Shown: positions 1,785-38,790, counted from the stretch's first letter. The stretch is 64,000 nt of DNA from an uncultured archaeon (GCA_964476045.1 CAYYYJ010000001.1:50733-114732); one strand, 5' to 3'. Notes: generated by a model not told the origin, from the sequence alone. Translations and numbers: made by a program.

Positions 1785-2546
1785 CTACTTCTCCACCAGC
1801 TGAAAACTAGCCTCCCCGCCTGACTTGCTGATCTCACCCGTGATGCTCTCTGCCTCAGCTGTCATTTTGCTTTTTAGCTCTTTGTAATTCTTCCCTGTCC
1901 CTACAAGCATGTAATTGGGAGCGGATATGTACTTTACCTCGTAACCTTTAACAGCCGAAAGTGTCTTCTTTATCACCTCGACGCCATTTTCTTTGTAAGA
2001 AATTAATTTCAAAGCCACTCTAAGTTCATGAATTTTCTGGGAAGCGTTTTTCTCGATGAAAACTAGTATTTCTGACTTCCATTTTTCAGGCAGTTCCCTT
2101 TTCCTGAAAATCTCCTGGTTTTCCTCAGCCATTTTAAAGGCTTTTGTCAGCGAACCAAACTCGTTTTGCAAAGTATAGCCTACTTCTGCATAAGCTTGGT
2201 CTAGCGTTTTATTCAAATTCTTTGCTATGAGCTCTAAAACTTTTTCAGATTTCTTTTCCCTCTTAAATTCGTTTAATTTCCTGTCGCCTTCTTCCTTGCT
2301 GAGCCTTTTTGCAGAGAGTATAATTGTATTTGTCCTTCTGTCAACATCCATTACTTTACAAACTATGTATTGCCCTTCTTTCAAGAACTCGCGGATGTCA
2401 CGAACCCACCTTTTGGCTACTTCAGATGCGTGGATGAGCCCGATTGTTTTGTATTCTATAACATCGCAGGAAGCAGAATGCTGGTCGATTTTCGTGACTC
2501 TGCAAATAACCAGATCATGCCTTTTCGGATAATTTCCATCGCTCAT
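1785..2546 (-). CDS. eif2a: translation initiation factor 2 alpha subunit (aIF2-alpha)
   Basis: N-terminal S1 domain (PKRHDLVICRVTKI...GLIHASEV...YIVCKVMDVD) and characteristic aIF2alpha helical/C-terminal domain; sits in the conserved L44e-S27e-aIF2alpha archaeal operon. Confidence 0.9.
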   Translation of the reverse strand: MSDGNYPKRHDLVICRVTKIDQHSASCDVIEYKTIGLIHASEVAKRWVRDIREFLKEGQYIVCKVMDVDRRTNTIILSAKRLSKEEGDRKLNEFKREKKSEKVLELIAKNLNKTLDQAYAEVGYTLQNEFGSLTKAFKMAEENQEIFRKRELPEKWKSEILVFIEKNASQKIHELRVALKLISYKENGVEVIKKTLSAVKGYEVKYISAPNYMLVGTGKNYKELKSKMTAEAESITGEISKSGGEASFQLVEK

Positions 2547-2595: not shown

Positions 2596-2763
2596 CTAAG
2601 AAACTTTGGCAGATATAATTTCAGCTTTGATATTAGCTTTCGCTGCCCTCGGTTCTGCCAGAACTTCATTGCAAACCAAGCATTTAACAAGAGTGGATGG
2701 CCTACTAAAAATTACCTGTTCGTTCTTGCACTTGCATTTTACTTTTAGGAATTCGTTCGCCAT
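2596..2763 (-). CDS. rps27e: 30S ribosomal protein S27e
   Basis: C4 zinc-ribbon FLKVKCKCKNEQVIFSRPSTLVKCLVCNEVLAEP typical of S27e; start moved to internal MANEF of the 2596..2799 ORF to fit the S27e length. Confidence 0.85.
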   Translation of the reverse strand: MANEFLKVKCKCKNEQVIFSRPSTLVKCLVCNEVLAEPRAAKANIKAEIISAKVS

Positions 2764-2832
2764 CTTAAAACCTCCAGCGGGTTTTAAGGAATCCAGCAAC
2801 CACTGGAAACCTTCTTCTATTTTCTAAAAATC

Positions 2833-3117
2833 TTATTGCAATTCGTATTTCTTTGCTCTAAATCCTTTTCTAAGATGCTGTTTCTTGCAGACACTGCAAA
2901 GATAACTGAGATTCAATTTCTTTGTTGGCTTGCCCTCGCCTTTTGGGTTAGGCCTTGGAAAACCGCCATAACCAGCCATCTTTCTTTCGAACCTTCTTTG
3001 CGACTGGGACTCTGGACGCTTGCTGCTTCTAGCCCTTTTCTTGACTATCTTTACTGTGTGCTCTGTATGCTTCCTGCACTTAGGGCAATAGGTCCTTACT
3101 AGTTTTGGCGCTTTCAT
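2833..3117 (-). CDS. rpl44e: 50S ribosomal protein L44e (eL42)
   Basis: [22 protein letters not shown] ... SVCKK zinc-binding L44e signature, 94 aa. Confidence 0.9.
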
Positions 3118-3170: not shown

Positions 3171-3686
3171 CTACGCTTTAACTGGTTGAGTGCCCTCTAT
3201 CCTCTCAGAAATACCCTTCTTTACTAAAAGTTCAGCTATCGGTTTTGGGACAGTAGCCATATCCCCTGACTTGAACGGCCCATACTTCTTCATATTAGTG
3301 CCAACAAATTCTTCTACATCCTGGAAAAATACCAAAAATTCCTCCTTCTCTTTTATGTCCATCTGCTTCTCAACTTTTTGGCGGAAGGATTTGATGACAT
3401 TCACTAAACTGTTAAAAAGTTCCTGTTCTTCGAGAGTCAGATTATCCAGAGTAACATTAGCCTTCACTGCGTTTATTGCCGAGTTGATTATTTTCTTCTC
3501 CCTGAGGTCTATAATATCCTGCAGCCTTCTTCGCGCAGACTCCAATTTCCATTCCTCCTCTGCAACTTTTGCTTTCTTATCCAGATAATTCAAAGCTTCG
3601 ACAAAAAAATCTTCTGGAATAGCGGTTAGTCTCCCTGTCGCTTTTTCCTCGTCTAAAATTTTTCTGATAGATTCGTAAGTTAGCAT
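3171..3686 (-). CDS. putative GINS subunit (Gins51/Gins15-like)
   Basis: Helical N-terminus MLTYESIRKILDEEKATGRLTAIPEDFFVEALNYL resembles GINS A-domain openings; about 170 aa; located in the same operon as the primase gene, as gins15 is in several archaea. Confidence 0.45.
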   Translation of the reverse strand: MLTYESIRKILDEEKATGRLTAIPEDFFVEALNYLDKKAKVAEEEWKLESARRRLQDIIDLREKKIINSAINAVKANVTLDNLTLEEQELFNSLVNVIKSFRQKVEKQMDIKEKEEFLVFFQDVEEFVGTNMKKYGPFKSGDMATVPKPIAELLVKKGISERIEGTQPVKA

Positions 3687-3694
3687 ATTTTAGA

Positions 3695-4537
3695 TCACCT
3701 TAAACTGAGTAAACTATCTGGTGGGTCACTCAGACCTCTTGATGAAGCTCTCATTACTTGAGATAAAGTTAGTTGACTATCCAGTCTAAATCCGCGAGCA
3801 CTGGTTAAGACCTTCCCCATCTCCCTATCAAATTCTCTAGAACCAGGCTCGTATACTCTAGGGATACAAATTACTCTTTCCTCTGACGAGTCCACAAGAC
3901 CTTTTTTCCGTTGTACCGTCACTTTAATTAATCTACTGTCTATTCCAAAATCCATTTCCCTAGACTCATATGGATGTATTTCGTCTTGAACTGGTTCTAC
4001 GACTATCAATGATGTTGAGCAATACTGATTCGGAACTTTTCCTTTTAGGGGTGTTCGAATAAGAACTTCTACACGTCTCTTTGTTCCGCGTTCTTTTAGA
4101 ATACCGTTATAAGAAAGATCTAGATAAGTTTCCTTCCCCCCATCAGGCCGTTTAGGAGAAATCATATATCTTAAACTGAACTCTTGGCCCAACTTATCAG
4201 TAAAATCTTTTGAGACCACGCTAGTTGGATTTGTATGAGGATTGCCATCCAAATAGGATAAAAAGGCATTCAGAACAAGACCGGAATTGAGTTTTATCCC
4301 CTCTACTCCATGAGGAGCATAAATGCTATTTTCGGCGACAATAACCCCATTCACATTAGATTTTCCAAATCTTTTTCTTATTTCATCGCCATTATCTTTT
4401 CTATGCAATGTTACGTAAACAAGACCACAAGATAACGTATGCTCCCTAAAGAACAAGCGTCTTCCTTCTGAAACAAACTCAACATCCAGATTTCTCTCAG
4501 ATTTGGCTGAATAATCAATAGTTGGACGTAATGCCAT
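3695..4537 (-). CDS. hypothetical protein (no recognisable domain), between primase and GINS-like genes
   Basis: 280-aa ORF with Arg/Gly/Pro/Ser-rich composition unlike its Lys-rich neighbours; tightly packed in the priS-X-gins operon. Confidence 0.5.
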   Translation of the reverse strand: MALRPTIDYSAKSERNLDVEFVSEGRRLFFREHTLSCGLVYVTLHRKDNGDEIRKRFGKSNVNGVIVAENSIYAPHGVEGIKLNSGLVLNAFLSYLDGNPHTNPTSVVSKDFTDKLGQEFSLRYMISPKRPDGGKETYLDLSYNGILKERGTKRRVEVLIRTPLKGKVPNQYCSTSLIVVEPVQDEIHPYESREMDFGIDSRLIKVTVQRKKGLVDSSEERVICIPRVYEPGSREFDREMGKVLTSARGFRLDSQLTLSQVMRASSRGLSDPPDSLLSLR

Positions 4538-4573: not shown

Positions 4574-5923
4574 TTATAAACTTCCTCCAGAATTCCAGCT
4601 CTCTATCCTTTCAAATTTCTTTTTGCCTGGTTTTCTGGCCAATCTGGGGGCCTTGGGCTTGTATGAACTCATTATCTTTACAGGATAGTTAATTGGGTTT
4701 TTCAGAAGTATTTTCGGCTGGCCGCAGATTCTGTCAGGCTTGCAGACAGTATCATACCAGCCAACAGATTTCTCTGATGGACAGTTAGGCGGTGGAAGCG
4801 TTTTATCTTTATTCAAATGCCATCTCAGCTGGCTCCTGATATAGGATTCTGGGAGCGGGGGAGAATTTTTCTGGTTCCATTCATTTATGTATTTCTCTAC
4901 ATCTTGCTCTGTCCATTTGGCTGCTTTCAGGAAGTTTATCAGGATAAAGACCCCTCTTTTCCTTCCGTCAGCAACCCCAGCTGAGATGTTCTTTATGCAC
5001 GGAGGGAAGATATCCTGCTTTATCGAGGATGTGATCTCAACTCTCCTGCTCTCCTTTATTTTCTCTGACTTTTCTGTTTTATTATAAAAATCTAATGTCT
5101 CTCCGATAAGGAGGTCTAACTCGCCTTCTTCTCCTGTATCCAAAAACCCTACAGTAGCATCGATTTTTTCTGGCACAGCATCCTCTTGCCTGAACTCCTC
5201 TAAGTCCTCTAGATTAACAGGAAGTGAAACCCAAAATTTTTTCATGTTCAGTGAATACGGCAGCCTGAAAAGATGCCTTGCAGACAACAAGATAGGATCA
5301 ATATCTACAATTTCAAAAGGATTTACCCCATCGCGTGTCATTATTTTTCCGAGAGGCTTTGAAGCCTGCTGTGCTAGTTCCTCAGGACTGTATTTCTTCA
5401 GCAAGGCTTTTTCTAAATCATCTTTAACCCTGGTTTTGAGGAAAGAAGCAACCTTTCTCGCAAGATCTGGGAACTGGTTTACAGTGGATTTATAATCTAT
5501 TTTCTTGGGTAGAGATTTCCAACTCAGACCTAAATGGAATCCAGTTCCCCCTGTAAATTTTATTGAGAGATTATGGACGCCAAATTTTTTCAGCTCTTTA
5601 GCTATTACCAAAGCTGCAATCTTTCCGTGATCGAACAGATCGCAATCCAAATCAAGAACAATATCCCATCCAACTCTGAGATCATTATAATTCCCTTCTT
5701 TTATAGAAGATGGGTTTGACCAGTGCTCTAAAGATCCGTGAAGCTCTATCACGCCAGATTTTGCCATTGTTGTTATATCTGTGGGAAATATGAGCGTGCC
5801 CGGCCTTTTGCTGAAAGCGCCTGTTTCATAAACTCCTGCAACCTCCCTGTTTGCAGAGACCTTGAGAAGCGCCTGCTGGATGTCTGGCCTGGAATAATAA
5901 TCAAGAACCTGCTGCCTGTCCAT
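4574..5923 (-). CDS. priS: DNA primase catalytic subunit PriS fused to a PriL C-terminal-like Fe-S domain
   Basis: AEP catalytic motif GWDIVLDLDCD and FTGGTGFH; C-terminal extension with FPPC plus three further Cys (NCPS, VCKP, ICGQ) resembling the PriL-CTD 4Fe-4S domain; 449 aa versus about 330-350 for a stand-alone PriS. Confidence 0.75.
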   Translation of the reverse strand: MDRQQVLDYYSRPDIQQALLKVSANREVAGVYETGAFSKRPGTLIFPTDITTMAKSGVIELHGSLEHWSNPSSIKEGNYNDLRVGWDIVLDLDCDLFDHGKIAALVIAKELKKFGVHNLSIKFTGGTGFHLGLSWKSLPKKIDYKSTVNQFPDLARKVASFLKTRVKDDLEKALLKKYSPEELAQQASKPLGKIMTRDGVNPFEIVDIDPILLSARHLFRLPYSLNMKKFWVSLPVNLEDLEEFRQEDAVPEKIDATVGFLDTGEEGELDLLIGETLDFYNKTEKSEKIKESRRVEITSSIKQDIFPPCIKNISAGVADGRKRGVFILINFLKAAKWTEQDVEKYINEWNQKNSPPLPESYIRSQLRWHLNKDKTLPPPNCPSEKSVGWYDTVCKPDRICGQPKILLKNPINYPVKIMSSYKPKAPRLARKPGKKKFERIESWNSGGSL

Positions 5924-6045
5924 ATGTTCTCATTTACTCTTAGATTTATAAACAAGAATAAGTTATTGGATCACGTGAGTGTTTCGGCTTCCAGAAAACT
6001 GTTCTTTTTCAATGCACTTTGTTTTTCCTACACAAACTTTCATAA

Positions 6046-8544
6046 TTAGCTATACTTCTCAATTATCTTTAAGCTTCTTTCCAATTCATCTATCGATTCG
6101 AGCATGCTCTCTTTTAGGAGCAATGGCAACTTCTTATTTTTCCCTAGGAACGCTTTACATTTTTTCAAAAATCCTTCTTCAACATAAACAGACGGGAACA
6201 GGTTGTCAAAGAAGTCCTCTGCATATTTCCTGTTCTTCTTTTCGAAAATCTCCAATATTTCTTTGAAAAAAGAATCGGAAAATTTCCTGAGGCCTTCTTT
6301 CTGCTTCCTGGAAAAGAACCTTGACATCCCAGTTCTCAGATAATCCAAAGAATATCCTTCACCTTTCACAAAAAGGTTCCAGTGCTCCTTCTTCTTTTCC
6401 GCTTTTGCAACTTTAGCTGCAAAAGCCTCTTTCTGGCCTTTATCGCTGCTATCTTTTTTTAACTCATTCTCTATCAGTAAATCTGTTTTAGGGTGACCGA
6501 AAACAGCAAGCCTATTTATGGACGCCCATCTCTGCTCTTGGTTAAATGGGAAATCTTTTATTTTCAACTTATTCTCTAAAAGTTCCACTACACGTTCGGG
6601 ATTTTTGCAGCCTCCTATACAAGAAGAAAGCAGATTAAACCAAACGTCTTTTAGCTCCCTGTCCATATTTTTTTGTATATTCTCTAGTGCAAAGCTGTAG
6701 ATTTTTTCGCAGTAAGTGAAGTAGTCTTCATCCTTCAAATAAGAGCCCAGTATCCCAGAAGCTCTGTTGAAAAGGGATTCGAGGATAAAGAGATTTTTTT
6801 CTTCAGGCGCTTTTTCTATAACAAGCTGTAAATATTTTTTCGGATCAAGAAAGGCATCCCTGACGCTCTGCCAAAGCGAACCATAGACCATCTGCCTTGA
6901 AAGGTCGTCCTGTATTTTCTGTATATTTTTTAGGGCATAGTTGACAGAACCTTCGTTGAGCCTTTCCTTCACATAATCATGGTCATTGTAATTCAATAAT
7001 ACAATATCAGGCTTCTCAGTTTTAGGGTCAACTTCTGTTAATACTCCTTTGTACTCGACAGAAAGCTCCTTTTGAACCCTTCCGTCTTTCAGAAAAGCTA
7101 TCTGACACCTATGCTCCCTAAGAAGGTTGTTTTTTAGCGAAGGATTTTGGACTATCCCAAGAGACTCCACTCGATTCCCTTCTGTCCTTATCATATATTC
7201 TATTGTATTCACTCCCGTAGTCTCAAGCCACATCTTTGCCCAGTTATCAAGGGATTTGCCACTCGATTTTTCCATGCACCCAAGAAAATCTTTGAGTGAT
7301 GTATTTGACCACTGGTATTTTTTGAAGTAAATCGAAAGCCCTTTTTTGAAAGCCTCCTCGCCAATAAAAAACATCAGTTGTTTGAGCACAGCAGCGCCTT
7401 TAGAATAGCTGATCCCATCGAAATTGCTGAAAGCCACATCAGTATCAGGCGCGTCAGCTGCTATTGGATGGGTTGTGACCCATTGATCTTCCACATACGC
7501 CCATGCCTTCCTCGCATAAAAGCTCTGCCATCCTTCTTTAAACTCTGTTGCTTGAACCAAGCCCAGGTAAGACAAGAAATCTGCAAAGCTCTCGTTCAAC
7601 CAGAGATCGTCCCACCATTTCATTGTCACAAGGTCGCCAAACCACATGTGCACCATCTCATGCAAAACAACATCGGCGAGAGTCGAACGCTCTGTCCTTC
7701 TTGGCTCATATCTGAACAGAAACCTTTCAGTGAACGTCACAGCGCCTACGTTCTCCATCGCACCGTGGTTGAACTCCGGAACAAATATTTGGTCGTACTT
7801 CTCAAAAGGGTATGGGAAATCAAAAAACTTCTGGTAAAATTCAAGGCCTTGCTTCGTGAAAGTGAACATGTCCTTATCTCTCAGGTATTTCTTCATTGAT
7901 TGCCTGCAAAATAGTCTGAGAGGTATTTTGCCTGATTTGTTCTGGACAGAGTGGAATTCTCCAACACTTAAGTGAAATAGATAAGTACTGAATCTAGGAG
8001 TTTGCTTGAAAAAAGTTGTTTTAAAATCGTTTTTATTCTCTACTTTTTCTTCCAGTGTGTTGGAAATCAAAGTCCATTCTTTTGGGGCCGTGACAGTCAA
8101 TTTGTATGTGGCTTTGATATCCGGCTGGTCAAAGCATGGGAACAGCCTGTGCGCATCGTAAGGCTCAAATTGCGTGTAGATATATTCTCTCTTGTCTTCA
8201 GGGTCTGTGAAATGGTGGAACCCTGTGCCTGTTTTATCGTATTCGTTTTCGTACTCAACTTCAATTTTGTTTTCTCCCTTTTTCAGCTGAGATTTATTTA
8301 TGATTAACGCAAAGCCTTCCTGTTTAAAATCAGATTTTTTATTGTTTACCCTCAGTATTTTGACATTTCCAATAAAATCTATTTTCAAATCGTCTTTAAT
8401 ATTTTTCAAAATAAAGTTGAGCTCGCATTTGCCTGAATAGGCCTTGCTGTTCTTTTTCAGGGAGACCTGTATTTTATAACTGACATCGCTTATCGCGGAT
8501 GTCCTTTTTTCTGCAAACTTTCTTGTCAGGATGTCTTCTGCCAT
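6046..8544 (-). CDS. pepN: aminopeptidase N (M1 family gluzincin)
   Basis: HEMVHMWFGDLVT (HExxH) followed by WLNESFA glutamate motif; 832 aa. Confidence 0.9.
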   Translation of the reverse strand: MAEDILTRKFAEKRTSAISDVSYKIQVSLKKNSKAYSGKCELNFILKNIKDDLKIDFIGNVKILRVNNKKSDFKQEGFALIINKSQLKKGENKIEVEYENEYDKTGTGFHHFTDPEDKREYIYTQFEPYDAHRLFPCFDQPDIKATYKLTVTAPKEWTLISNTLEEKVENKNDFKTTFFKQTPRFSTYLFHLSVGEFHSVQNKSGKIPLRLFCRQSMKKYLRDKDMFTFTKQGLEFYQKFFDFPYPFEKYDQIFVPEFNHGAMENVGAVTFTERFLFRYEPRRTERSTLADVVLHEMVHMWFGDLVTMKWWDDLWLNESFADFLSYLGLVQATEFKEGWQSFYARKAWAYVEDQWVTTHPIAADAPDTDVAFSNFDGISYSKGAAVLKQLMFFIGEEAFKKGLSIYFKKYQWSNTSLKDFLGCMEKSSGKSLDNWAKMWLETTGVNTIEYMIRTEGNRVESLGIVQNPSLKNNLLREHRCQIAFLKDGRVQKELSVEYKGVLTEVDPKTEKPDIVLLNYNDHDYVKERLNEGSVNYALKNIQKIQDDLSRQMVYGSLWQSVRDAFLDPKKYLQLVIEKAPEEKNLFILESLFNRASGILGSYLKDEDYFTYCEKIYSFALENIQKNMDRELKDVWFNLLSSCIGGCKNPERVVELLENKLKIKDFPFNQEQRWASINRLAVFGHPKTDLLIENELKKDSSDKGQKEAFAAKVAKAEKKKEHWNLFVKGEGYSLDYLRTGMSRFFSRKQKEGLRKFSDSFFKEILEIFEKKNRKYAEDFFDNLFPSVYVEEGFLKKCKAFLGKNKKLPLLLKESMLESIDELERSLKIIEKYS

Positions 8545-8551
8545 ATTTACT

Positions 8552-8887
8552 CTAGACCAGCTCGTGCTCCCAGATATTAAGGTTGAGCCTGTGGTTGTTA
8601 GAAATGAAGCCTTTGGTCAGCGGGGTCGAGATATAATCAACAGTAGTTTTTACAAAAATCTTTTTTCTTGCTAAAAAGTTTATCATGCCTAGCGTGTCCC
8701 TGTCAGAGAAAACATGTATCTGGCCGTGTTTTTTTATTATTTTATCTGTTTTTGTTTTTTTATCGAAAACCAAATCGAACTTTATGCCACAACAGTCATC
8801 GGCTTTCTTCAGCCTCAGCCCATAGCCTTTCCTATCAGCGAGCAACTGGGTCACCACGTGCACAGCCTTTTGAGTGAGGTCTATCAT
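8552..8887 (-). CDS. HesB/IscA-like protein (degenerate, lacks the C-terminal Cys pair)
   Basis: MIDLTQKAVHVVTQLL...GYGLRLKKADDCCGIKFDLVFD matches the IscA N-terminal fold and first Cys; no C-terminal CxC. Confidence 0.5.
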   Translation of the reverse strand: MIDLTQKAVHVVTQLLADRKGYGLRLKKADDCCGIKFDLVFDKKTKTDKIIKKHGQIHVFSDRDTLGMINFLARKKIFVKTTVDYISTPLTKGFISNNHRLNLNIWEHELV

Positions 8888-9524: not shown

Positions 9525-10064
9525 TTGGATATGGCAACCGAAAGCTCGAGACTAGTTTTATTGGGCCAGAAAGATGGCATAAGGGAGCTTGTAGATCGAA
9601 GTCCTCCATACAGGCTACCAAGAGGCGCTGCTTCACTACGCGAAGTATTAGAAAGAAAAGATAGGCCTTATATGTCAGGGAGGCTTCTACTGGTAACAGA
9701 CGATTTTTACGGAAAATCAAGCCGTTTTTGGTACGAGCATCCAGCAGGGTTAATCGAAAGTGGTGTTATAGCTGATAGTGACACAGAGACTCACCGAGAT
9801 ATTCGAAATCCTTTTGATTATGTTCAAGCATTGTTGCTGAAGGCTGAAATAGAAGCTGATATAGAAATTAGAAATGAGGGAAAAGATGTCGTAGGTGTAT
9901 ATCTCTTGAGAAGCAATCCAAAAGACAAACTAACAATAGGTCTTGGTAGAATTATCAGGCCTCAACCCTCAGAAGGCCCGCCAGTTGGTATTGGCTATGT
10001 TCATTTAGAAAGGCCGGCTCCTGTAAAAGCAGGGGGAACACAAGGCGGTTGGGATCTGGATTGA
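9525..10064 (+). CDS. hypothetical protein (orphan ORF in a 660-bp gap)
   Basis: 179-aa ORF with Arg/Gly/Pro-rich composition; only sizeable ORF in the gap between two minus-strand housekeeping genes. Confidence 0.4.
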   Translation: MDMATESSRLVLLGQKDGIRELVDRSPPYRLPRGAASLREVLERKDRPYMSGRLLLVTDDFYGKSSRFWYEHPAGLIESGVIADSDTETHRDIRNPFDYVQALLLKAEIEADIEIRNEGKDVVGVYLLRSNPKDKLTIGLGRIIRPQPSEGPPVGIGYVHLERPAPVKAGGTQGGWDLD

Positions 10065-10104: not shown

Positions 10105-10854
10105 TCACTCATCAGACAACGGCGCGAGAATAAAATTTAAATTCACTTTGTCTATTTCCTTGAAAGAAAGCCTGAGCGGATAATCATTCCCAAACTCTAT
10201 AGTCACCTGCTTTGAGATCTTGCATGCCTTTGCCATTTTCTTTAGGTATTCAAGCTGATATCTTGACTTAAGGTTTTCTTTGATATCAAGGCTTAGTAGA
10301 CCTTGCTCACCTTTCTGCATAGTCAATTCCCATAGCGAGGTGTCGCTTTTTGATGAGATTTTAAAGTTATTTGGATCAGCCTCGAAAATAGCAGAGTCGC
10401 CTATTATATTGGCATCCTCTATACTGTCTTCCAGAACAGAAGATTCCAGGTCTATCTTTCCAGGGAAAGCCAGCTGTTCTATAGGAGGCTTATCCCTCTT
10501 AATATCTAAAATAGGGATTTCAAATTTCCTTTTCCCAGACCCCTCTACAAGCATTTCCAACTTATTTTTCGGCATGCTCAAAGTTATTTTCTCGTTTGCT
10601 TTGACTCTCTTAAGTATACTAACTAGATTAGGCAAGTTCAGTCCTATCTTCACCTCTGTATCAACTTTATACTCCTCAAAAGCGGCGGACAATAATCTAA
10701 AATCAACAACAGCGACCATGTTCCTGTCAGGCGAGAGCAAGCTCATCCCGTTAGCATCGAAAGTGAAAACAGCCTCGTCTATGATCTCTGAAATTATTCC
10801 TATAGAATTTTTGAGGACGTCAGCATTGGCAAGTATAACTTTCATAAGAAACAC
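10105..10854 (-). CDS. pcn: DNA polymerase sliding clamp PCNA
   Basis: 249 aa; N-terminus MFLMKVILANADVLKNSIGIISEIIDEAVFTFDANGMSLLSPDRNMVAVVDF typical of archaeal PCNA. Confidence 0.9.
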   Translation of the reverse strand: MFLMKVILANADVLKNSIGIISEIIDEAVFTFDANGMSLLSPDRNMVAVVDFRLLSAAFEEYKVDTEVKIGLNLPNLVSILKRVKANEKITLSMPKNKLEMLVEGSGKRKFEIPILDIKRDKPPIEQLAFPGKIDLESSVLEDSIEDANIIGDSAIFEADPNNFKISSKSDTSLWELTMQKGEQGLLSLDIKENLKSRYQLEYLKKMAKACKISKQVTIEFGNDYPLRLSFKEIDKVNLNFILAPLSDE

Positions 10855-10857
10855 TAA

Positions 10858-11199
10858 TTACTTTATGGACTGAAGCTTTTTAAAAACATCGAGATCCAAT
10901 TTATCCATATTTTGCAAAACTTCTCCCCGAATTTCTATTCCATGCTGAGCTATATCTCCAGAGATAGGCAAATTCCCTTCAGCAGGCATGACTCGCCCTA
11001 TTATTCTAACCAATTTCTGCGGACTAGTATTGATTGGCATCTCAAAAGTAGCTTTTAGTTTTCCTGTACCGTCGTCTAGGATTATAGACTGATCTTGCAC
11101 TTCCAGCACAGTTCCGATAACCCGGATTCTTATATCAGAGTCTTTGATTTCAGAGATTTTCTTCTCGGTTGAGGGATATTTTTTAAATTCTTGTGGCAT
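10858..11199 (-). CDS. single OB-fold nucleic-acid-binding protein (RPA/SSB-like)
   Basis: IRVIGTVLEV...IILDDGTGKLKATF pattern of tRNA_anti-like OB folds; immediately downstream of PCNA. Confidence 0.45.
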   Translation of the reverse strand: MPQEFKKYPSTEKKISEIKDSDIRIRVIGTVLEVQDQSIILDDGTGKLKATFEMPINTSPQKLVRIIGRVMPAEGNLPISGDIAQHGIEIRGEVLQNMDKLDLDVFKKLQSIK

Positions 11200-19018: not shown

Positions 19019-20035
19019 CTATTCCAATTTATCCATCAGCCCATAATAGAACATTTCTTCTGCTAACCATCTAGCCGGTACCTCTGTAAGAAGTCTAAAA
19101 TGGTTTTGATTAAAGGTGTCTAATTTTCTGCCACTAGCCAATCTTTCTGCTCTCTGTATGCGATATTTCCTGATAGCATCTGCAAAAGTCGACGGCACTT
19201 CGGTCAGAACATTGATATCTAAGCTAATTGCTTCTCCTATAACTATTCTCGTTTTTTCAGTGTCTTGACCCAACCTTCTGCCAACTATCATCTCTCTCCC
19301 TGGAAGCTCGTAAACACACATTTGCCCATCGCTGTGGTCTTCTCCACTTATATCGGTTAAAGGTATTTGAGGCTGTCTATCCTTCTCAAATCTCCCAGTT
19401 GCTAAAAGTTCTTCTTGTACAGGCGACTCATAAATTATATTGTTGTTAAATATTTTAGCAGACAAGACCACTTTACCCACATTATCTCTATTTGGTTCTT
19501 GCTCAAAATACATCATGATAAGCTCTTCCCTGGTCATCGGTCTATTCGCGACGCCTATGCTGGAGACATGAACTACGACTTCACCAGTCTGTCTATCTAA
19601 TCTCGCAGTGGCTTGTATATTCTGTGGTCTAGGAGGAAATCTCTGCACATTGATCAGCAACTTAGCTTTTTTATCAGGACCAGAATCTGCTATATAATCT
19701 CCCACATATGTTACACCTTCTGTTGTTTTAACCATTATTGCGTTTTTAATCCCCCGTCTGTATTCTATACGCCTTGGTTTGCACTTTAAAGTAACACTGT
19801 CATTAGATCTAGATTCTTCATACTCAACACAAGCATTGGCCCCCAATTTATACTTGAGCTCTGCTCTTAGTTTTTCTTGAGGAGGTAGACCACCGTTAGG
19901 ATCTGCGGCGTAGCATCTTATAACTACAGGATCCTTAGGATCAATTGGGCCTAAAGAAATAATTCGGTTGCCGTGCATTCTCCTTAGATCTTCATCTGTT
20001 CCGGTTAGACATAAAAATCCTTTATATCTTGGCAT
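19019..20035 (-). CDS. hypothetical protein (no recognisable domain)
   Basis: 338-aa ORF, Arg/Gly/Pro-rich and Lys-poor compared with neighbours; convergent with the CBS gene. Confidence 0.5.
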   Translation of the reverse strand: MPRYKGFLCLTGTDEDLRRMHGNRIISLGPIDPKDPVVIRCYAADPNGGLPPQEKLRAELKYKLGANACVEYEESRSNDSVTLKCKPRRIEYRRGIKNAIMVKTTEGVTYVGDYIADSGPDKKAKLLINVQRFPPRPQNIQATARLDRQTGEVVVHVSSIGVANRPMTREELIMMYFEQEPNRDNVGKVVLSAKIFNNNIIYESPVQEELLATGRFEKDRQPQIPLTDISGEDHSDGQMCVYELPGREMIVGRRLGQDTEKTRIVIGEAISLDINVLTEVPSTFADAIRKYRIQRAERLASGRKLDTFNQNHFRLLTEVPARWLAEEMFYYGLMDKLE

Positions 20036-30855: not shown

Positions 30856-32091
30856 TTACACGTTCACAGGTATTGCAATTTTTAATTTCTCGACCATATC
30901 TAATTTCTCCCAGCTAAAACTATCTCTTCCGAAATGGCCGTATTTCGCAGTTTCTGCATACACTGGTTTTCCAGGACCTATCAACTTTAGCTTTTCTATT
31001 ATCCTGCCTGGTCTCCATGGGAAAACTTCTTTGACTTTCTCTGCTATCTCATGATCGGGGATCTGTCCTGTTCCAAAAGTATCAACTCTTATAGACAACG
31101 GATCTGGCTTCCCTATAACATAAGAAACCTGTATTTCGCACCTATCGGACAGACCGGAAGCTACAATATTTTTTGCAGCCCATCTGCATGCATAGGTTGC
31201 TGACCTGTCGACTTTTGACGGATCTTTTCCTGAAAAGGCGCCACCGCCATGCCTTCCCATTCCGCCGTATGTGTCCACGATTATTTTTCTTCCAGTTACG
31301 CCACTATCGCCTACTGGACCCCCTATAACAAATCTCCCTGTCCCGTTTATATGAAATTTTGTATCTTTATCCAACATCTCGTGCGGTATAACTTTCCTTA
31401 TAATTTCATCCTCTATCCCTTGTCTAATCTCTGAGTCTGTTGCGGACTCTAGGTGCTGCGCAGCTAAGACGACATGAATCACTTTTATAGGCTTGTTGTT
31501 TTCGTAGAGAACTGTAACTTGGGATTTTGCGTCAGGCCTAAGCCATGGAAGTATGCCATTTTTCCTGCACTGATCCAATTGCATAATAAGTTTGTGGGAT
31601 AAGTCAATCGGCAACGGCATCAAAGACGTTGTCTCATTTGTTGCATATCCGAACATCAGGCCTTGGTCTCCGGCGCCTTGCAAATCAAGGTCGGCTTTAT
31701 TTACGCCTTGCGCAATATCAACTGATTGTTTTCCCAATAGAGACAATACAAAGCAATTGGGGTCAAAACCGTCTCCATCCACATAGCCGATATCTTTTAT
31801 TGTTCTTCTGACTAAGTCTTCTGGATCAAATTCCGCATTAGTGGTGATCTCTCCCAATAAAACAATGGCCCCGTGCTTTTCAATGTGTTTCGCGTTCTCA
31901 ACTCCGAATAGTTTTACCAATGGCGCATATTTTTTATTATCAAAAATGCCTGCTTTAACGCCTGTCTCAACTGCAACTCTTGAATTCACATCGCCTAACA
32001 GGGCTGCATCCACTATTGAATCTGAGACCTGATCACAGACTTTATCTGGGTGTCCAGGAGAAACAGCCTCGGAAGTAAAATATGATTTCAT
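30856..32091 (-). CDS. metK: S-adenosylmethionine synthetase, bacterial/eukaryotic MetK type
   Basis: FTSEAVSPGHPDKVCDQVSDSIVDA and GGGAFSGKDPSKVDRSATYACRWAAKNIVASGL match MetK motifs, not the archaeal MAT family. Confidence 0.85.
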   Translation of the reverse strand: MKSYFTSEAVSPGHPDKVCDQVSDSIVDAALLGDVNSRVAVETGVKAGIFDNKKYAPLVKLFGVENAKHIEKHGAIVLLGEITTNAEFDPEDLVRRTIKDIGYVDGDGFDPNCFVLSLLGKQSVDIAQGVNKADLDLQGAGDQGLMFGYATNETTSLMPLPIDLSHKLIMQLDQCRKNGILPWLRPDAKSQVTVLYENNKPIKVIHVVLAAQHLESATDSEIRQGIEDEIIRKVIPHEMLDKDTKFHINGTGRFVIGGPVGDSGVTGRKIIVDTYGGMGRHGGGAFSGKDPSKVDRSATYACRWAAKNIVASGLSDRCEIQVSYVIGKPDPLSIRVDTFGTGQIPDHEIAEKVKEVFPWRPGRIIEKLKLIGPGKPVYAETAKYGHFGRDSFSWEKLDMVEKLKIAIPVNV

Positions 32092-33476: not shown

Positions 33477-34331
33477 ATGCTCAAACTTGCCAGCTTAGGC
33501 GTTCTATTTTTAATCCTCGCAGTTGGGATAAGCATAGGCTACATAACCTCAATTTCTTTGATGAGCGGAAATTCAATATTGGTTCAAAAAGATAGGATAG
33601 ATCCTCAAGAGACTGTTTTATACGAGCGTGTGAAAGAAGCCGAGGTACCAGAATCCAATACCACACCTTCTAAAGAATATGATTGTAAAAATATTTCTTG
33701 TGAAAATTCCAGCACTATTTGCCAAGACGGGGTAAAAAAAGAATGTAAAAACATATGTTCAAAGGGGAAATGCTCGGAGTGTAAACCTGACTGCACAGAA
33801 GAGGGAATTTCTCCTTCACAATCAACGAAAAATATAACTCTTGGAACACCAGGTTCTGATAAAGCCAACTGCGTTTCTAGCTGGTCTTGTACAGATTGGT
33901 CTCTTTGTTCTGGCAATACACAAAATAGAATCTGCACCGATTCAAATAACTGCGGAACTTCACAAAACAGACCATCTGAAATACAAGCATGTTCTGCTGC
34001 TTCAGGGGACAAAACTTTATCGCTATCTATTTCCACCAACAACCAAACCTTAGTCAGGGGCAACGAAGTTATTATAACCTCTAAAGTATCTGATGGGGGA
34101 AAACAGATTGAGAATTCCGGAGTAGAAATCACGCTAACCTATGCAAGCGGTACAGAGCACATAGCATCGGGATTTACAGATTCTTCTGGAACATTCATAT
34201 GGACAAAATTAATTGGAGGGAACTCGAAAGCCGGAACATTCAAAATCCAGGCGAAAGCCAATAAGACAGGTTACTTGGGTGCGTCGAGCACCATATCATT
34301 CGAGGTTATAGCTAAACCAACTAGCAGTTAA
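33477..34331 (+). CDS. secreted/membrane-anchored Cys-rich protein with C-terminal Ig-like (Big/PKD-like) domain
   Basis: N-terminal hydrophobic anchor; about 20 Cys in CxxC-rich repeats (CKNISCENSSTICQDGVKKECKNICSKGKCSECKPDC); C-terminal beta-rich segment reminiscent of bacterial Ig-like domains. Confidence 0.5.
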   Translation: MLKLASLGVLFLILAVGISIGYITSISLMSGNSILVQKDRIDPQETVLYERVKEAEVPESNTTPSKEYDCKNISCENSSTICQDGVKKECKNICSKGKCSECKPDCTEEGISPSQSTKNITLGTPGSDKANCVSSWSCTDWSLCSGNTQNRICTDSNNCGTSQNRPSEIQACSAASGDKTLSLSISTNNQTLVRGNEVIITSKVSDGGKQIENSGVEITLTYASGTEHIASGFTDSSGTFIWTKLIGGNSKAGTFKIQAKANKTGYLGASSTISFEVIAKPTSS

Positions 34332-36729: not shown

Positions 36730-38790
36730 TTATGCTACCAAGTTGCTGACTTTAAAGATCTTGACCTCAGAGTTGTCAAAGACTAGCTTGAAGTTGTTTA
36801 AACCGACCCCATTGAAGAAGAACATCCTTGTAAATACGCTATCCCTTATTGACGGTTCCATGAATATTACGCTTGAAAAGTTTGGGTCAACCCATAGAAG
36901 TCCGTCAACAAATTCTGTATTAGTGGAATTTGCAGCGAAGTTAAGCAATTGGCCCTGGCCATTTTGGAACACTAGCATATTTTTAACTACAGCACTTCTC
37001 CCGTTCTGTGTTACAATGGGGATTAGACGTCCGTCTTTGTTTGAGATTACAATACTGCCGCCTGCATATACCAGTTCATTATTCTGCTGTTTTTCTAAAT
37101 TAAATGTTGCATAATTCTTGCCCTGGCCTGTGCCGAAGAAACTAAGCCAATAATATTTTCCGATGAGATCCGAGCTCGCGATTATATAAAAATCTGAGAC
37201 TGGCTTGCATGCATCTGGCGGAACAATATCCCCGAATGCTGCTCTGACTCGGCTGCATTGGGCAGGTGTGAGTTCCTTATATTTTTTCAGGATATCGAGG
37301 GCTTCAGTCTCGCTGGAAGTCACAAACATCTTGCCTGCATCCTTTATCCTTATGTTATGATTGTAGGGTATGCAATCGGCTGGAGAGCAATGCGCACCAT
37401 CCGCCTGAACTTTCAAACCAGTATATCCCGTGATGATGTGGCCTGGATCCCACCAGGTTGTTACTAAAGAATCTTTATCTGCATTTGTTTTTAGCCAGTC
37501 AAGTGCACTATACCAGTTCTGGCTTATCTGCAAACCGCTGTTTTGGTAGCCTGTGAGGATTGCATCTGAAACGAAAAACAATGAAATCAGGACAATCACA
37601 CCGTACAAGAAAACCTGGTAAGCAATCTGCTGCCTTTTTCTCATAAATGCAATGAGATTTGCCATCACGTAACCTGCTGCAACTGCCGTAGCGATCGAGA
37701 AGAGCAAAGAGAACCTAACGCCCCTTAATATCAAAATATAGCTAATTATCCACCAAGACAATAAGAAAACTTCCACAAAATTGGTTTTTATTTTCTTTTT
37801 TAACTTGTATAATATTATTGCAGGGACACCCAACAAAGAGAAAAGCATGGGGCCGATGCCAACTCTACCGGCTATCGATAAGAAACCTTCTTTTGTCAAA
37901 ATATTTACTGGCTGCAGTTCTGCAACAGAAACATTGACTATAAGCCCTTCGCCGAAAACAAACCCTAGGCTAACCAACATAGAAGCCAGCGGATTGCTCA
38001 ATCCGAAAACTTCCCCGAGGACGCTCGAAACAGCCAAGATTATAACAAGCGGTTTAACTATGTTTTTGAATTCTGGTTTTAGTTCTGCAAAACTCGGCAT
38101 TTTTCTGCTGTGGGCAGTATTTTCTATGAACCTGAAAATTAAAAAGCCTGGAATAAATAGAGTGAAAAGTATGAGCGGGAACCAGCCCCCATTCCAGCTA
38201 AACGCGAAGAAGAGGTTTGCGATTATAGAGAACGCATAATTAGGGACAGTGGGTTTTTTGAGAGTTCTTATTATCAGATAAATTGTTGTGAAAAACAGGA
38301 AGTTGACAGGGGCGTCGGAATCTGCGTAACCCCCCATCGAAACGCCTATGAGGGTTGGGGTCAGAACTGCGAACAGCGCCACCAGGAGACCGGCCCATTT
38401 ATTTTTGATGAGCCTGCCCAAGAGGAATGCAGGGATTATCGCTAGAATGACCATCAGTATCGGAGCGAATTTTACTACATCAGTTAAACTGTAATTCCCA
38501 AATAAGCCGGAGAGTTTGTAGAATACGGCCATTGTGTATGGCCATCCCTGACGAACATCATTTGGCCTTCCAGGAGGATAATAACTGAGTGTGTCCCATT
38601 TCAAAGGCTGGAAATCATTGTTTACAATCTCCTGTGTATGCCTAAAAAACCACCAAGGATCATAATCTAGAACAGTAGGCGAACTCAGCGTACCTGCCCG
38701 CACAAAATAAGCCAGATAGGCGATGAAGATTAGGCCTAAAATTACTGCGACCCTTTCGATCTGCTTTTTATCTTTACTCATCTTAAACAT
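36730..38790 (-). CDS. aglB: archaeal oligosaccharyltransferase AglB (STT3 family)
   Basis: 13 or more TM helices N-terminally, then catalytic WWDPGH (WWDYG-type motif) in TTWWDPGHIITGY; 686 aa. Confidence 0.85.
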   Translation of the reverse strand: MFKMSKDKKQIERVAVILGLIFIAYLAYFVRAGTLSSPTVLDYDPWWFFRHTQEIVNNDFQPLKWDTLSYYPPGRPNDVRQGWPYTMAVFYKLSGLFGNYSLTDVVKFAPILMVILAIIPAFLLGRLIKNKWAGLLVALFAVLTPTLIGVSMGGYADSDAPVNFLFFTTIYLIIRTLKKPTVPNYAFSIIANLFFAFSWNGGWFPLILFTLFIPGFLIFRFIENTAHSRKMPSFAELKPEFKNIVKPLVIILAVSSVLGEVFGLSNPLASMLVSLGFVFGEGLIVNVSVAELQPVNILTKEGFLSIAGRVGIGPMLFSLLGVPAIILYKLKKKIKTNFVEVFLLSWWIISYILILRGVRFSLLFSIATAVAAGYVMANLIAFMRKRQQIAYQVFLYGVIVLISLFFVSDAILTGYQNSGLQISQNWYSALDWLKTNADKDSLVTTWWDPGHIITGYTGLKVQADGAHCSPADCIPYNHNIRIKDAGKMFVTSSETEALDILKKYKELTPAQCSRVRAAFGDIVPPDACKPVSDFYIIASSDLIGKYYWLSFFGTGQGKNYATFNLEKQQNNELVYAGGSIVISNKDGRLIPIVTQNGRSAVVKNMLVFQNGQGQLLNFAANSTNTEFVDGLLWVDPNFSSVIFMEPSIRDSVFTRMFFFNGVGLNNFKLVFDNSEVKIFKVSNLVA

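Follow-up and report, generated by a model that had tools for sequence, protein, structure and literature searches.

A single-chain PriS-PriL primase of the known DPANN type very probably encoded in the genome of an uncultured archaeon

Analysis of a 64,000-nucleotide stretch of DNA from an uncultured archaeon (GCA_964476045.1 CAYYYJ010000001.1:50733-114732; hereafter the window, whose own positions are used throughout) revealed a minus-strand gene at 4574-5923 that very probably encodes a single-chain, fused PriS-PriL primase of the type already known from DPANN archaea and represented by NEQ395 of Nanoarchaeum equitans. The product is one polypeptide in which an N-terminal catalytic domain of the archaeo-eukaryotic primase (AEP)/PriS kind is followed by a domain corresponding to the C-terminal domain of the primase large subunit (PriL-CTD). 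Its open reading frame (ORF) opens with ATG, runs uninterrupted for 449 aa to a TAA stop, and is found as an identical copy in an independent Logan assembly (L001). The motifs that a preliminary description of the sequence had read in this protein are all present: GWDIVLDLDCD begins at residue 85, FTGGTGFH at residue 123 and FPPC at residue 306, the last of these lying with three other cysteines within the final ~140 residues (the cysteines are at 94, 309, 381, 394 and 400). The quoted primase motifs were invariant across an alignment of 119 family sequences. The gene and its parts are as follows.

4574-5923, minus strand: gene for the predicted single-chain PriS-PriL primase (ORF list, 1249 homologues, AlphaFold2 mean predicted local distance difference test (pLDDT) 91.2)
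5138-5923, minus strand: AEP/PriS-type catalytic domain, residues 1 to about 262 (sub-cut-off Pfam matches, Foldseek, cysteine positions)
5645-5659, minus strand: AEP motif I (hhhDhD), VLDLD, carrying the metal ligands D91 and D93 (translation, conservation, equivalent to NEQ395 D87/D89)
5534-5542, minus strand: AEP motif II (sxH), GFH, with H130 (translation, conservation, equivalent to NEQ395 H125)
5297-5308, minus strand: AEP motif III (hD), VDID, with D209 (translation, conservation, equivalent to NEQ395 D194)
5264-5275, minus strand: HLFR, with H217 and R220 as predicted contacts of the elongating nucleotide (conservation, spacing as for NEQ395 H202/R205)
5048-5116, minus strand: long linker helix, residues 270-292, in place of the PriL N-terminal domain (DSSP on the model)
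4661-5038, minus strand: PriL-CTD-like helical domain, residues 296-421
4997-5008, minus strand: FPPC, with the first predicted 4Fe-4S ligand, C309 (translation, conservation, aligned to the FPPC of P. abyssi PriL 9f26_B)
4946-4963, minus strand: RKRGVF, with R321, R323 and F326 as predicted contacts for the initiating nucleotide, the primer's 5' end and the template (conservation, NEQ395 spacing)
4724-4783, minus strand: C381, C394 and C400, the remaining three predicted 4Fe-4S ligands (translation, conservation, NEQ395 spacing)
4577-4660, minus strand: basic, low-confidence C-terminal tail, residues 422-449 (pLDDT falling from 55 to 37; K/R-rich; length varying across the family)

Both domains were recognised by sequence and by fold. 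On residues 49-237 the Pfam profiles DNA_primase_S and LigD_Prim-Pol scored 20.3 and 19.9 bits, each under its cut-off (27.4 for LigD_Prim-Pol). The PriL profile DNA_primase_lrg (PF04104) scored 28.3 bits on residues 276-382, above its cut-off of 22.4, the match being confined to profile positions 78-189 of 266. NCBIfam profiles gave weak PriL and PriX matches on residues 280-420. Searching PDB sequences with the single protein recovered Pyrococcus abyssi PriL with FPPC aligned on FPPC, and a profile of the 119 family sequences matched P. abyssi PriL (E 4e-5) and human PriS (~6e-3). An AlphaFold2 model built from the family alignment (mean pLDDT 91.2) showed a mixed alpha/beta N-terminal domain joined by the helix at 270-292 to a helical C-terminal domain, with a tail disordered from residue 433. 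Foldseek with the whole model returned Prim-PolC, human Pri1, LigD PolDom, and P. abyssi and P. furiosus PriS at E values of 4e-8 to 1e-5; fold matches were obtained for the AEP part and for the PriL-CTD part alike. The PriS catalytic domain and the PriL-CTD-like extension proposed in the preliminary description are both borne out, the former by its invariant motifs and fold matches, the latter by the profile score, the helical model and the four cysteines.

The family is large, and its catalytic and C-terminal residues are strongly conserved. At E<=1e-3 we found 1249 related proteins, well beyond what chance would give. Among the 120 relatives listed, coverage of the query was never below 91%, lengths fell mostly between 414 and 466 aa, and the source was mostly metagenome-assembled genomes (MAGs) of Aenigmarchaeota; where a relative carries a name, it is hypothetical protein or "DNA primase catalytic subunit". 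Conservation was counted over 82 complete family sequences (35-82% identity), 81 of them single ORFs of 370-487 aa from other genomes. Eight residues, D91, D93, H130, R216, H217, R220, K322 and R323, were invariant in 82/82, and position 321 was R or K in all 82. Near-invariance extended to H62, D209, C309 and C381 (79-81/82; D209 in 79, C309 and C381 in 81 each), with C400 in 79/82, C394 in 76/82 and F326 in 75/82. All four C-terminal cysteines occurred together in 76 of the 82. C94, the residue right after the catalytic DxD (DLDC; 5642-5644, minus strand), was conserved in 70/82 family members.

Comparison with NEQ395, the monomeric PriS-PriL primase characterised biochemically by Schneider, Bergsch and Lipps 2023 (PMC10250227), provided the closest functional reference. 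Fifteen positions mutagenised in NEQ395 (H58, D87, D89, S119, K122, H125, D194, H202, R205, C289, R301, R303, F306, C364, C376 and C384, D87/D89 being paired) were assigned counterparts in the window primase: H62, D91/D93, T124, T127, H130, D209, H217, R220, C309, R321, R323, F326, C381, C394 and C400. These assignments were made by spacing and not by direct alignment, and the offsets they imply are consistent within blocks (+4, +5, +15, +20, and +16 to +18). Identity was found at 13 of the 15 positions; S119 corresponds to T124, a position occupied by T or S in the family, and K122, which is weakly conserved, to T127. All mapped positions other than T127 were kept in 75-82 of the 82 family members. 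R321, R323 and F326 sit +12, +14 and +17 from the first cysteine, distances equal to those in NEQ395, and the C-terminal cysteines are spaced 72/13/6 against 75/12/8 in NEQ395. The residues in question matter in NEQ395: the D87/D89 double mutant is inactive, H202 and R205 are both essential, and R301, R303 and F306 are required for priming but not for elongation (PMC10250227).

In each of the two proteins a single chain runs from an AEP domain through a long linker helix to a PriL-CTD-like domain carrying four cysteines, and both lack the PriL N-terminal domain and the PriS zinc motif. PriS structures feature a zinc-binding cysteine motif; because C94 is the sole cysteine among residues 1-308, the catalytic domain of the window primase has no such motif. 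The window protein is longer than NEQ395 (449 against 393 aa), mainly before the linker helix and in its 28-residue basic C-terminal tail, and belongs to a different phylum, being Aenigmatarchaeota-like with about 40% GC.

From this likeness a working scheme can be proposed. In the catalytic domain, D91, D93 and D209 would bind metal, with H130 beside them, and H62, T124, H217 and R220 would serve the elongating nucleoside triphosphate (NTP), so that the domain would polymerise NTPs. A rigid linker helix of ~23 residues would replace the PriL N-terminal domain. The PriL-CTD-like domain most likely holds a 4Fe-4S cluster on C309, C381, C394 and C400, and its R321, R323 and F326 would, as in NEQ395, hold the initiating nucleotide and the primer's 5' end, acting in cis with the catalytic domain to give the first dinucleotide. 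In NEQ395 the linker helix spans residues 251-280 and its length sets primer length (PMC10250227); by analogy, the linker of the window primase may limit the RNA primer to about 9 nt. We infer from the same comparison that the window enzyme would be a monomeric, Fe-S-binding protein with primase activity, and would presumably follow NEQ395 in primer length and in any sequence specificity.

The NEQ395 cluster is dispensable in vitro (PMC10250227), and by analogy that of the window primase would be present yet non-essential in vitro. Natural variants of the cysteines exist within the family. The L044 primase (6001-7299 of JACQNZ010000009.1, an Aenigmatarchaeota MAG) departs from the family motifs FPPC and PPNC, reading FPPS and PPNF instead; since it lacks two of the four Fe-S ligands, it probably carries no cluster. 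In the L060 and L064 primases the third cysteine is shifted and a histidine stands in the fourth position. These variants agree with the cluster being dispensable in vitro in NEQ395.

The window primase was further compared with the better-known primase forms. With canonical PriS-PriL (P. abyssi 9f26/9f28, human PRIM1/PRIM2) it has in common the catalytic fold and motifs I-III, and with the canonical PriL Fe-S helical domain the same FPPC signature and the same predicted role in initiation. Unlike in the canonical enzymes, these functions are covalently joined, the PriS-binding PriL N-terminal domain is missing, and the catalytic part lacks the zinc-binding and accessory subdomains of PriS; identity with the canonical subunits in structural alignments was 11-17%. 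A canonical heterodimeric PriS/PriL was rejected on the basis of the absent PriL N-terminal region, the absence of any other PriL-like ORF in the window, and the absent zinc motif. PriX is the PriL-CTD paralogue found in Crenarchaeota; it lacks a 4Fe-4S cluster and contributes its own chain to a heterotrimer (PMC10250227). The window protein differs from Sulfolobus PriX (5of3_C, 4wyh) in being fused and in keeping all four cysteine ligands, and since it is neither ligand-free nor a separately encoded subunit, this assignment was also rejected.

The preliminary description had seen no separate priL near the primase gene. Consistent with this, no second PriS or PriL was found when the ORFs of at least 150 aa in the 64-kb window were scanned against Pfam. 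A six-frame scan of the window (657 segments of at least 40 aa), with hidden Markov models (HMMs) for the N-terminal and the C-terminal half of the family, likewise matched the primase gene alone. For the genome as a whole, the absence of a separate priS or priL is expected from published surveys of Cluster 2.

Fused primases of this kind are well documented. According to the account in PMC3914693, the fusion was first noticed by Iyer et al. 2005, and Raymann et al. 2014 (PMC3914693) reported that Nanoarchaeota, Parvarchaeota and Nanohaloarchaea have a short primase in which PriS and PriL are fused. Dombrowski et al. (PMC7414124) found the fused version in all Cluster 2 genomes surveyed and regarded it as a synapomorphy uniting Undinarchaeota with DPANN Cluster 2, to which Aenigmarchaeota belong. 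A 2026 preprint reports the same distribution together with a primase phylogeny that includes Aenigmarchaea. The preliminary description rightly named Nanoarchaeum as having a single-chain primase, but the published range is wider, taking in DPANN Cluster 2 and Undinarchaeota (PMC7414124, PMC3914693). The window gene is one more orthologue from a phylum already reported to have the fused primase, and is ordinary for its lineage.

Our own searches gave a matching picture. When one genome per species was scanned, at least 571 species-representative genomes carried a relative of the primase. The best 80 genomes were headed by Aenigmatarchaeota, with identities reaching 67%, and MAGs labelled Woese- or Nanoarchaeota came next at 35-40%; homologues in MAGs with these three labels were full-length, at 35-67% identity. 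The primase of the nearest relative (L082-L084) was 82% identical. The window primase is related in sequence to fused primases from the other Cluster 2 phyla, as would fit a single origin. The nearest relatives are Aenigmatarchaeota MAGs, in line with the DPANN-like affiliation put forward earlier.

The genes around the primase, and an element just before it, are as follows.

10105-10854, minus strand: PCNA (Pfam PCNA_N and PCNA_C)
5945-5952, minus strand: TTTATAAA, TATA-box-like element, 22-29 nt before the ATG (read from the sequence)
3695-4537, minus strand: 280-aa ORF between primase and GINS genes (36-bp gap to the primase)
3171-3686, minus strand: GINS subunit of Gins51/Gins15 type (Pfam Gins51_C 59 bits, Sld5 39.8 bits; 8-bp gap to the 280-aa ORF)
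2833-3117, minus strand: L44e (Pfam, synteny)
2596-2799, minus strand: S27e (Pfam, synteny)
1785-2546, minus strand: aIF2-alpha (Pfam, synteny)

Berthon et al. 2008 (PMC2643942) described an archaeal cluster in which PCNA-PriS-Gins15 is joined with L44E-S27E-aIF2alpha-Nop10. The fused primase occupies the PriS position of this cluster, and the L44e, S27e and aIF2-alpha genes of the window make up its translation side. At 38 of 81 loci GINS comes next after primase, and many of these continue with L44e, S27e and aIF2alpha. L063, L057, L044 and L026 have PCNA as the immediate upstream neighbour of the primase, and L063 preserves the complete series PCNA, primase, GINS, L44e, S27e, aIF2alpha. In the window, PCNA and primase are set apart by four genes, which are an opposite-strand ORF of 179 aa, NT5C, an ORF of 111 aa and an M1 peptidase gene. 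This place in a conserved cluster fits a housekeeping primase that works with GINS and PCNA.

Adjoining the PCNA gene is a 113-aa ORF (10858-11199, minus strand) with a Pfam Rep_fac-A_3 score of 23.2 bits, just below the 23.5 cut-off; judged from this match, it may encode a small single-strand-binding or RPA-like subunit with an RPA3-like oligonucleotide/oligosaccharide-binding (OB) fold. The element TTTATAAA at 5945-5952 is a candidate archaeal promoter, which, going by the general layout of such promoters, we take to be one that would give a leaderless or short-leader mRNA. The sigma-70 promoter and terminator scan uses a bacterial model and is uninformative for an archaeon.

Three other explanations of the gene were weighed. 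The protein could belong to a virus or integrated mobile element as its primase-polymerase, in which case it would not be the host's replicative primase. PolpTN2 of the Thermococcus nautilus plasmid pTN2 and ORF904 of pRN1 likewise combine an N-terminal AEP domain with a C-terminal PriL/PriX-like helix bundle in one chain, so that fused PriS-PriL-like proteins do exist on archaeal plasmids (PMC3973330). A weak PHROG primase match (E 2e-4) and the foreign-looking 280-aa ORF directly downstream point the same way, as does the proposal of the 2026 preprint that a mobile element was the source of the whole fused family, which replaced the resident primase in the clade's ancestor. Against a currently mobile enzyme stand the housekeeping synteny of the conserved cluster, the absence of mobile-element genes among the Pfam-scanned ORFs of the window, and the absence of primase relatives in viral contigs. 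On these grounds assignment to the pTN2 or pRN1 types was rejected, and we consider a mobile-element primase highly improbable. The same three observations count against a repair-type Prim-Pol, that is, a LigD-type polymerase of non-homologous end joining (NHEJ) or a PrimPol-like translesion primase. Such a role was suggested by the LigD_Prim-Pol match, by mycobacterial Prim-PolC and LigD PolDom among the top Foldseek matches (target-normalised TM-score 0.48-0.59), and by one homologue (P0113) that NCBI names LigD. The LigD_Prim-Pol score, however, falls under its cut-off, and fold matches do not discriminate, since LigD, Prim-PolC and primase have the AEP fold in common. The bacterial enzymes, which act in NHEJ or excision repair, lack a PriL-CTD-like domain, whereas replicative primases are marked by just such a domain and its initiation residues. 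The Pfam scans of window ORFs showed neither a Ku nor a ligase gene nearby. Finally, the N. equitans orthologue is the sole primase of its genome and is active as a primase (PMC10250227). There is accordingly very little chance that the gene encodes a repair enzyme.

The fusion itself might also be an artefact of assembly or gene calling that joined adjacent short priS and short priL genes, the arrangement seen in Nanosalina J07AB43; Raymann et al. (PMC3914693) noted one nanohaloarchaeon in which a pair of neighbouring genes aligns with the fused primase. This is scarcely credible here, given the unbroken ORF with its identical copy in the independent assembly L001, the 81 complete single ORFs from other genomes, and the continuous helix that the model places across the junction. 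Single-chain fused primase of the host thus remains by far the most probable identity of the gene.

The preliminary description had placed the primase in an operon with the 280-aa ORF and the GINS-like gene. The GINS part of this claim stood, GINS being a conserved neighbour, but the 280-aa ORF proved to be a recent insertion. It is absent from the nearest relative, in which (L082-L084) 39 bp separate the primase from the GINS gene that follows it, and the primase-GINS gap is comparably short at most other loci. A word-based search of 5.8 billion proteins found the 280-aa protein itself only, and an exhaustive HMMER search of 1.84 billion representatives added a single homologue, P0122 (278 aa, 49% identical over the full length), whose gene follows a truncated 322-aa gene on a contig of 1.9 kb. 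By its score the ORF is coding in its own frame, with a third-position GC content (GC3) of 0.28 against 0.35-0.54 in its neighbours. No match was found in Pfam, NCBIfam, PHROG, PADLOC or PDB, no relative in viral contigs, and no convincing flanking repeats. The 280-aa ORF is a real gene, recently acquired and confined to a narrow clade; that its product is a lineage-specific replisome accessory is less likely. A conserved primase partner was rejected because the ORF is missing from relatives, and a diverged primase domain because hhalign against the primase family gave 0.3% probability.

Other loci carry inserts at the same junction. In L003 it holds a 434-aa acidic ORF (7414-8718), to which the 280-aa ORF is unrelated; in L007, two small opposite-strand ORFs (7639-8142) that form a RelE/ParE-type toxin-antitoxin-like candidate pair; and in L075, a 326-aa opposite-strand ORF (7664-8644). 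Since unrelated inserts occur there in different lineages, the primase-GINS junction is a variable spot and apparently a recurrent insertion site.

Positional orthology also bears on how the fusion arose. One scenario, which differs from the replacement proposed in the 2026 preprint, is that the monomeric primase arose in place, a resident priS having captured a PriL-CTD. Occupation of the exact ancestral PriS slot, as in the L063 series and the primase-GINS order of 38 of the 81 loci, would argue for an in-place origin. The conserved slot could also reflect in-place displacement of priS by a foreign gene, and we regard the capture scenario as tentative and rather unlikely.

Elsewhere in the window, ~22400-63600 forms a large glycosylation and cell-surface island with many glycosyltransferases of families GT1, GT2 and GT4. 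It includes an STT3/AglB oligosaccharyltransferase (36730-38790), three PMT_2-type mannosyltransferases and a B12-binding radical S-adenosylmethionine (SAM) enzyme, and also asparagine synthase, sugar epimerases/dehydratases and a polysaccharide flippase. The SAM synthetase gene at 30856-32091 (minus strand) matches the bacterial/eukaryotic MetK domains PF00438, PF02772 and PF02773. Most archaea use a distinct archaeal-type SAM synthetase, and the gene may have been acquired horizontally. Three ORFs had no Pfam match (338 aa, 19019-20035; 284 aa, 33477-34331; and the 179-aa ORF, 9525-10064). The 64-kb window contained no tRNA genes and no Rfam matches at gathering score, and a cluster look-up of its proteins returned no public names or accessions.

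These results settle the annotation of an unnamed ORF as the replicative primase, at the strength given above, and place the source organism in the primase-fusion DPANN clade (Cluster 2 and Undinarchaeota), most likely among the Aenigmatarchaeota. The class of enzyme is a minimal and tractable model of eukaryote-type primase, a case already made with NEQ395. Beyond confirmation, two observations are added: the conserved slot beside Gins51 and PCNA, which bears on the origin of the fusion, and the primase-GINS junction, which repeatedly takes unrelated, lineage-specific inserts.
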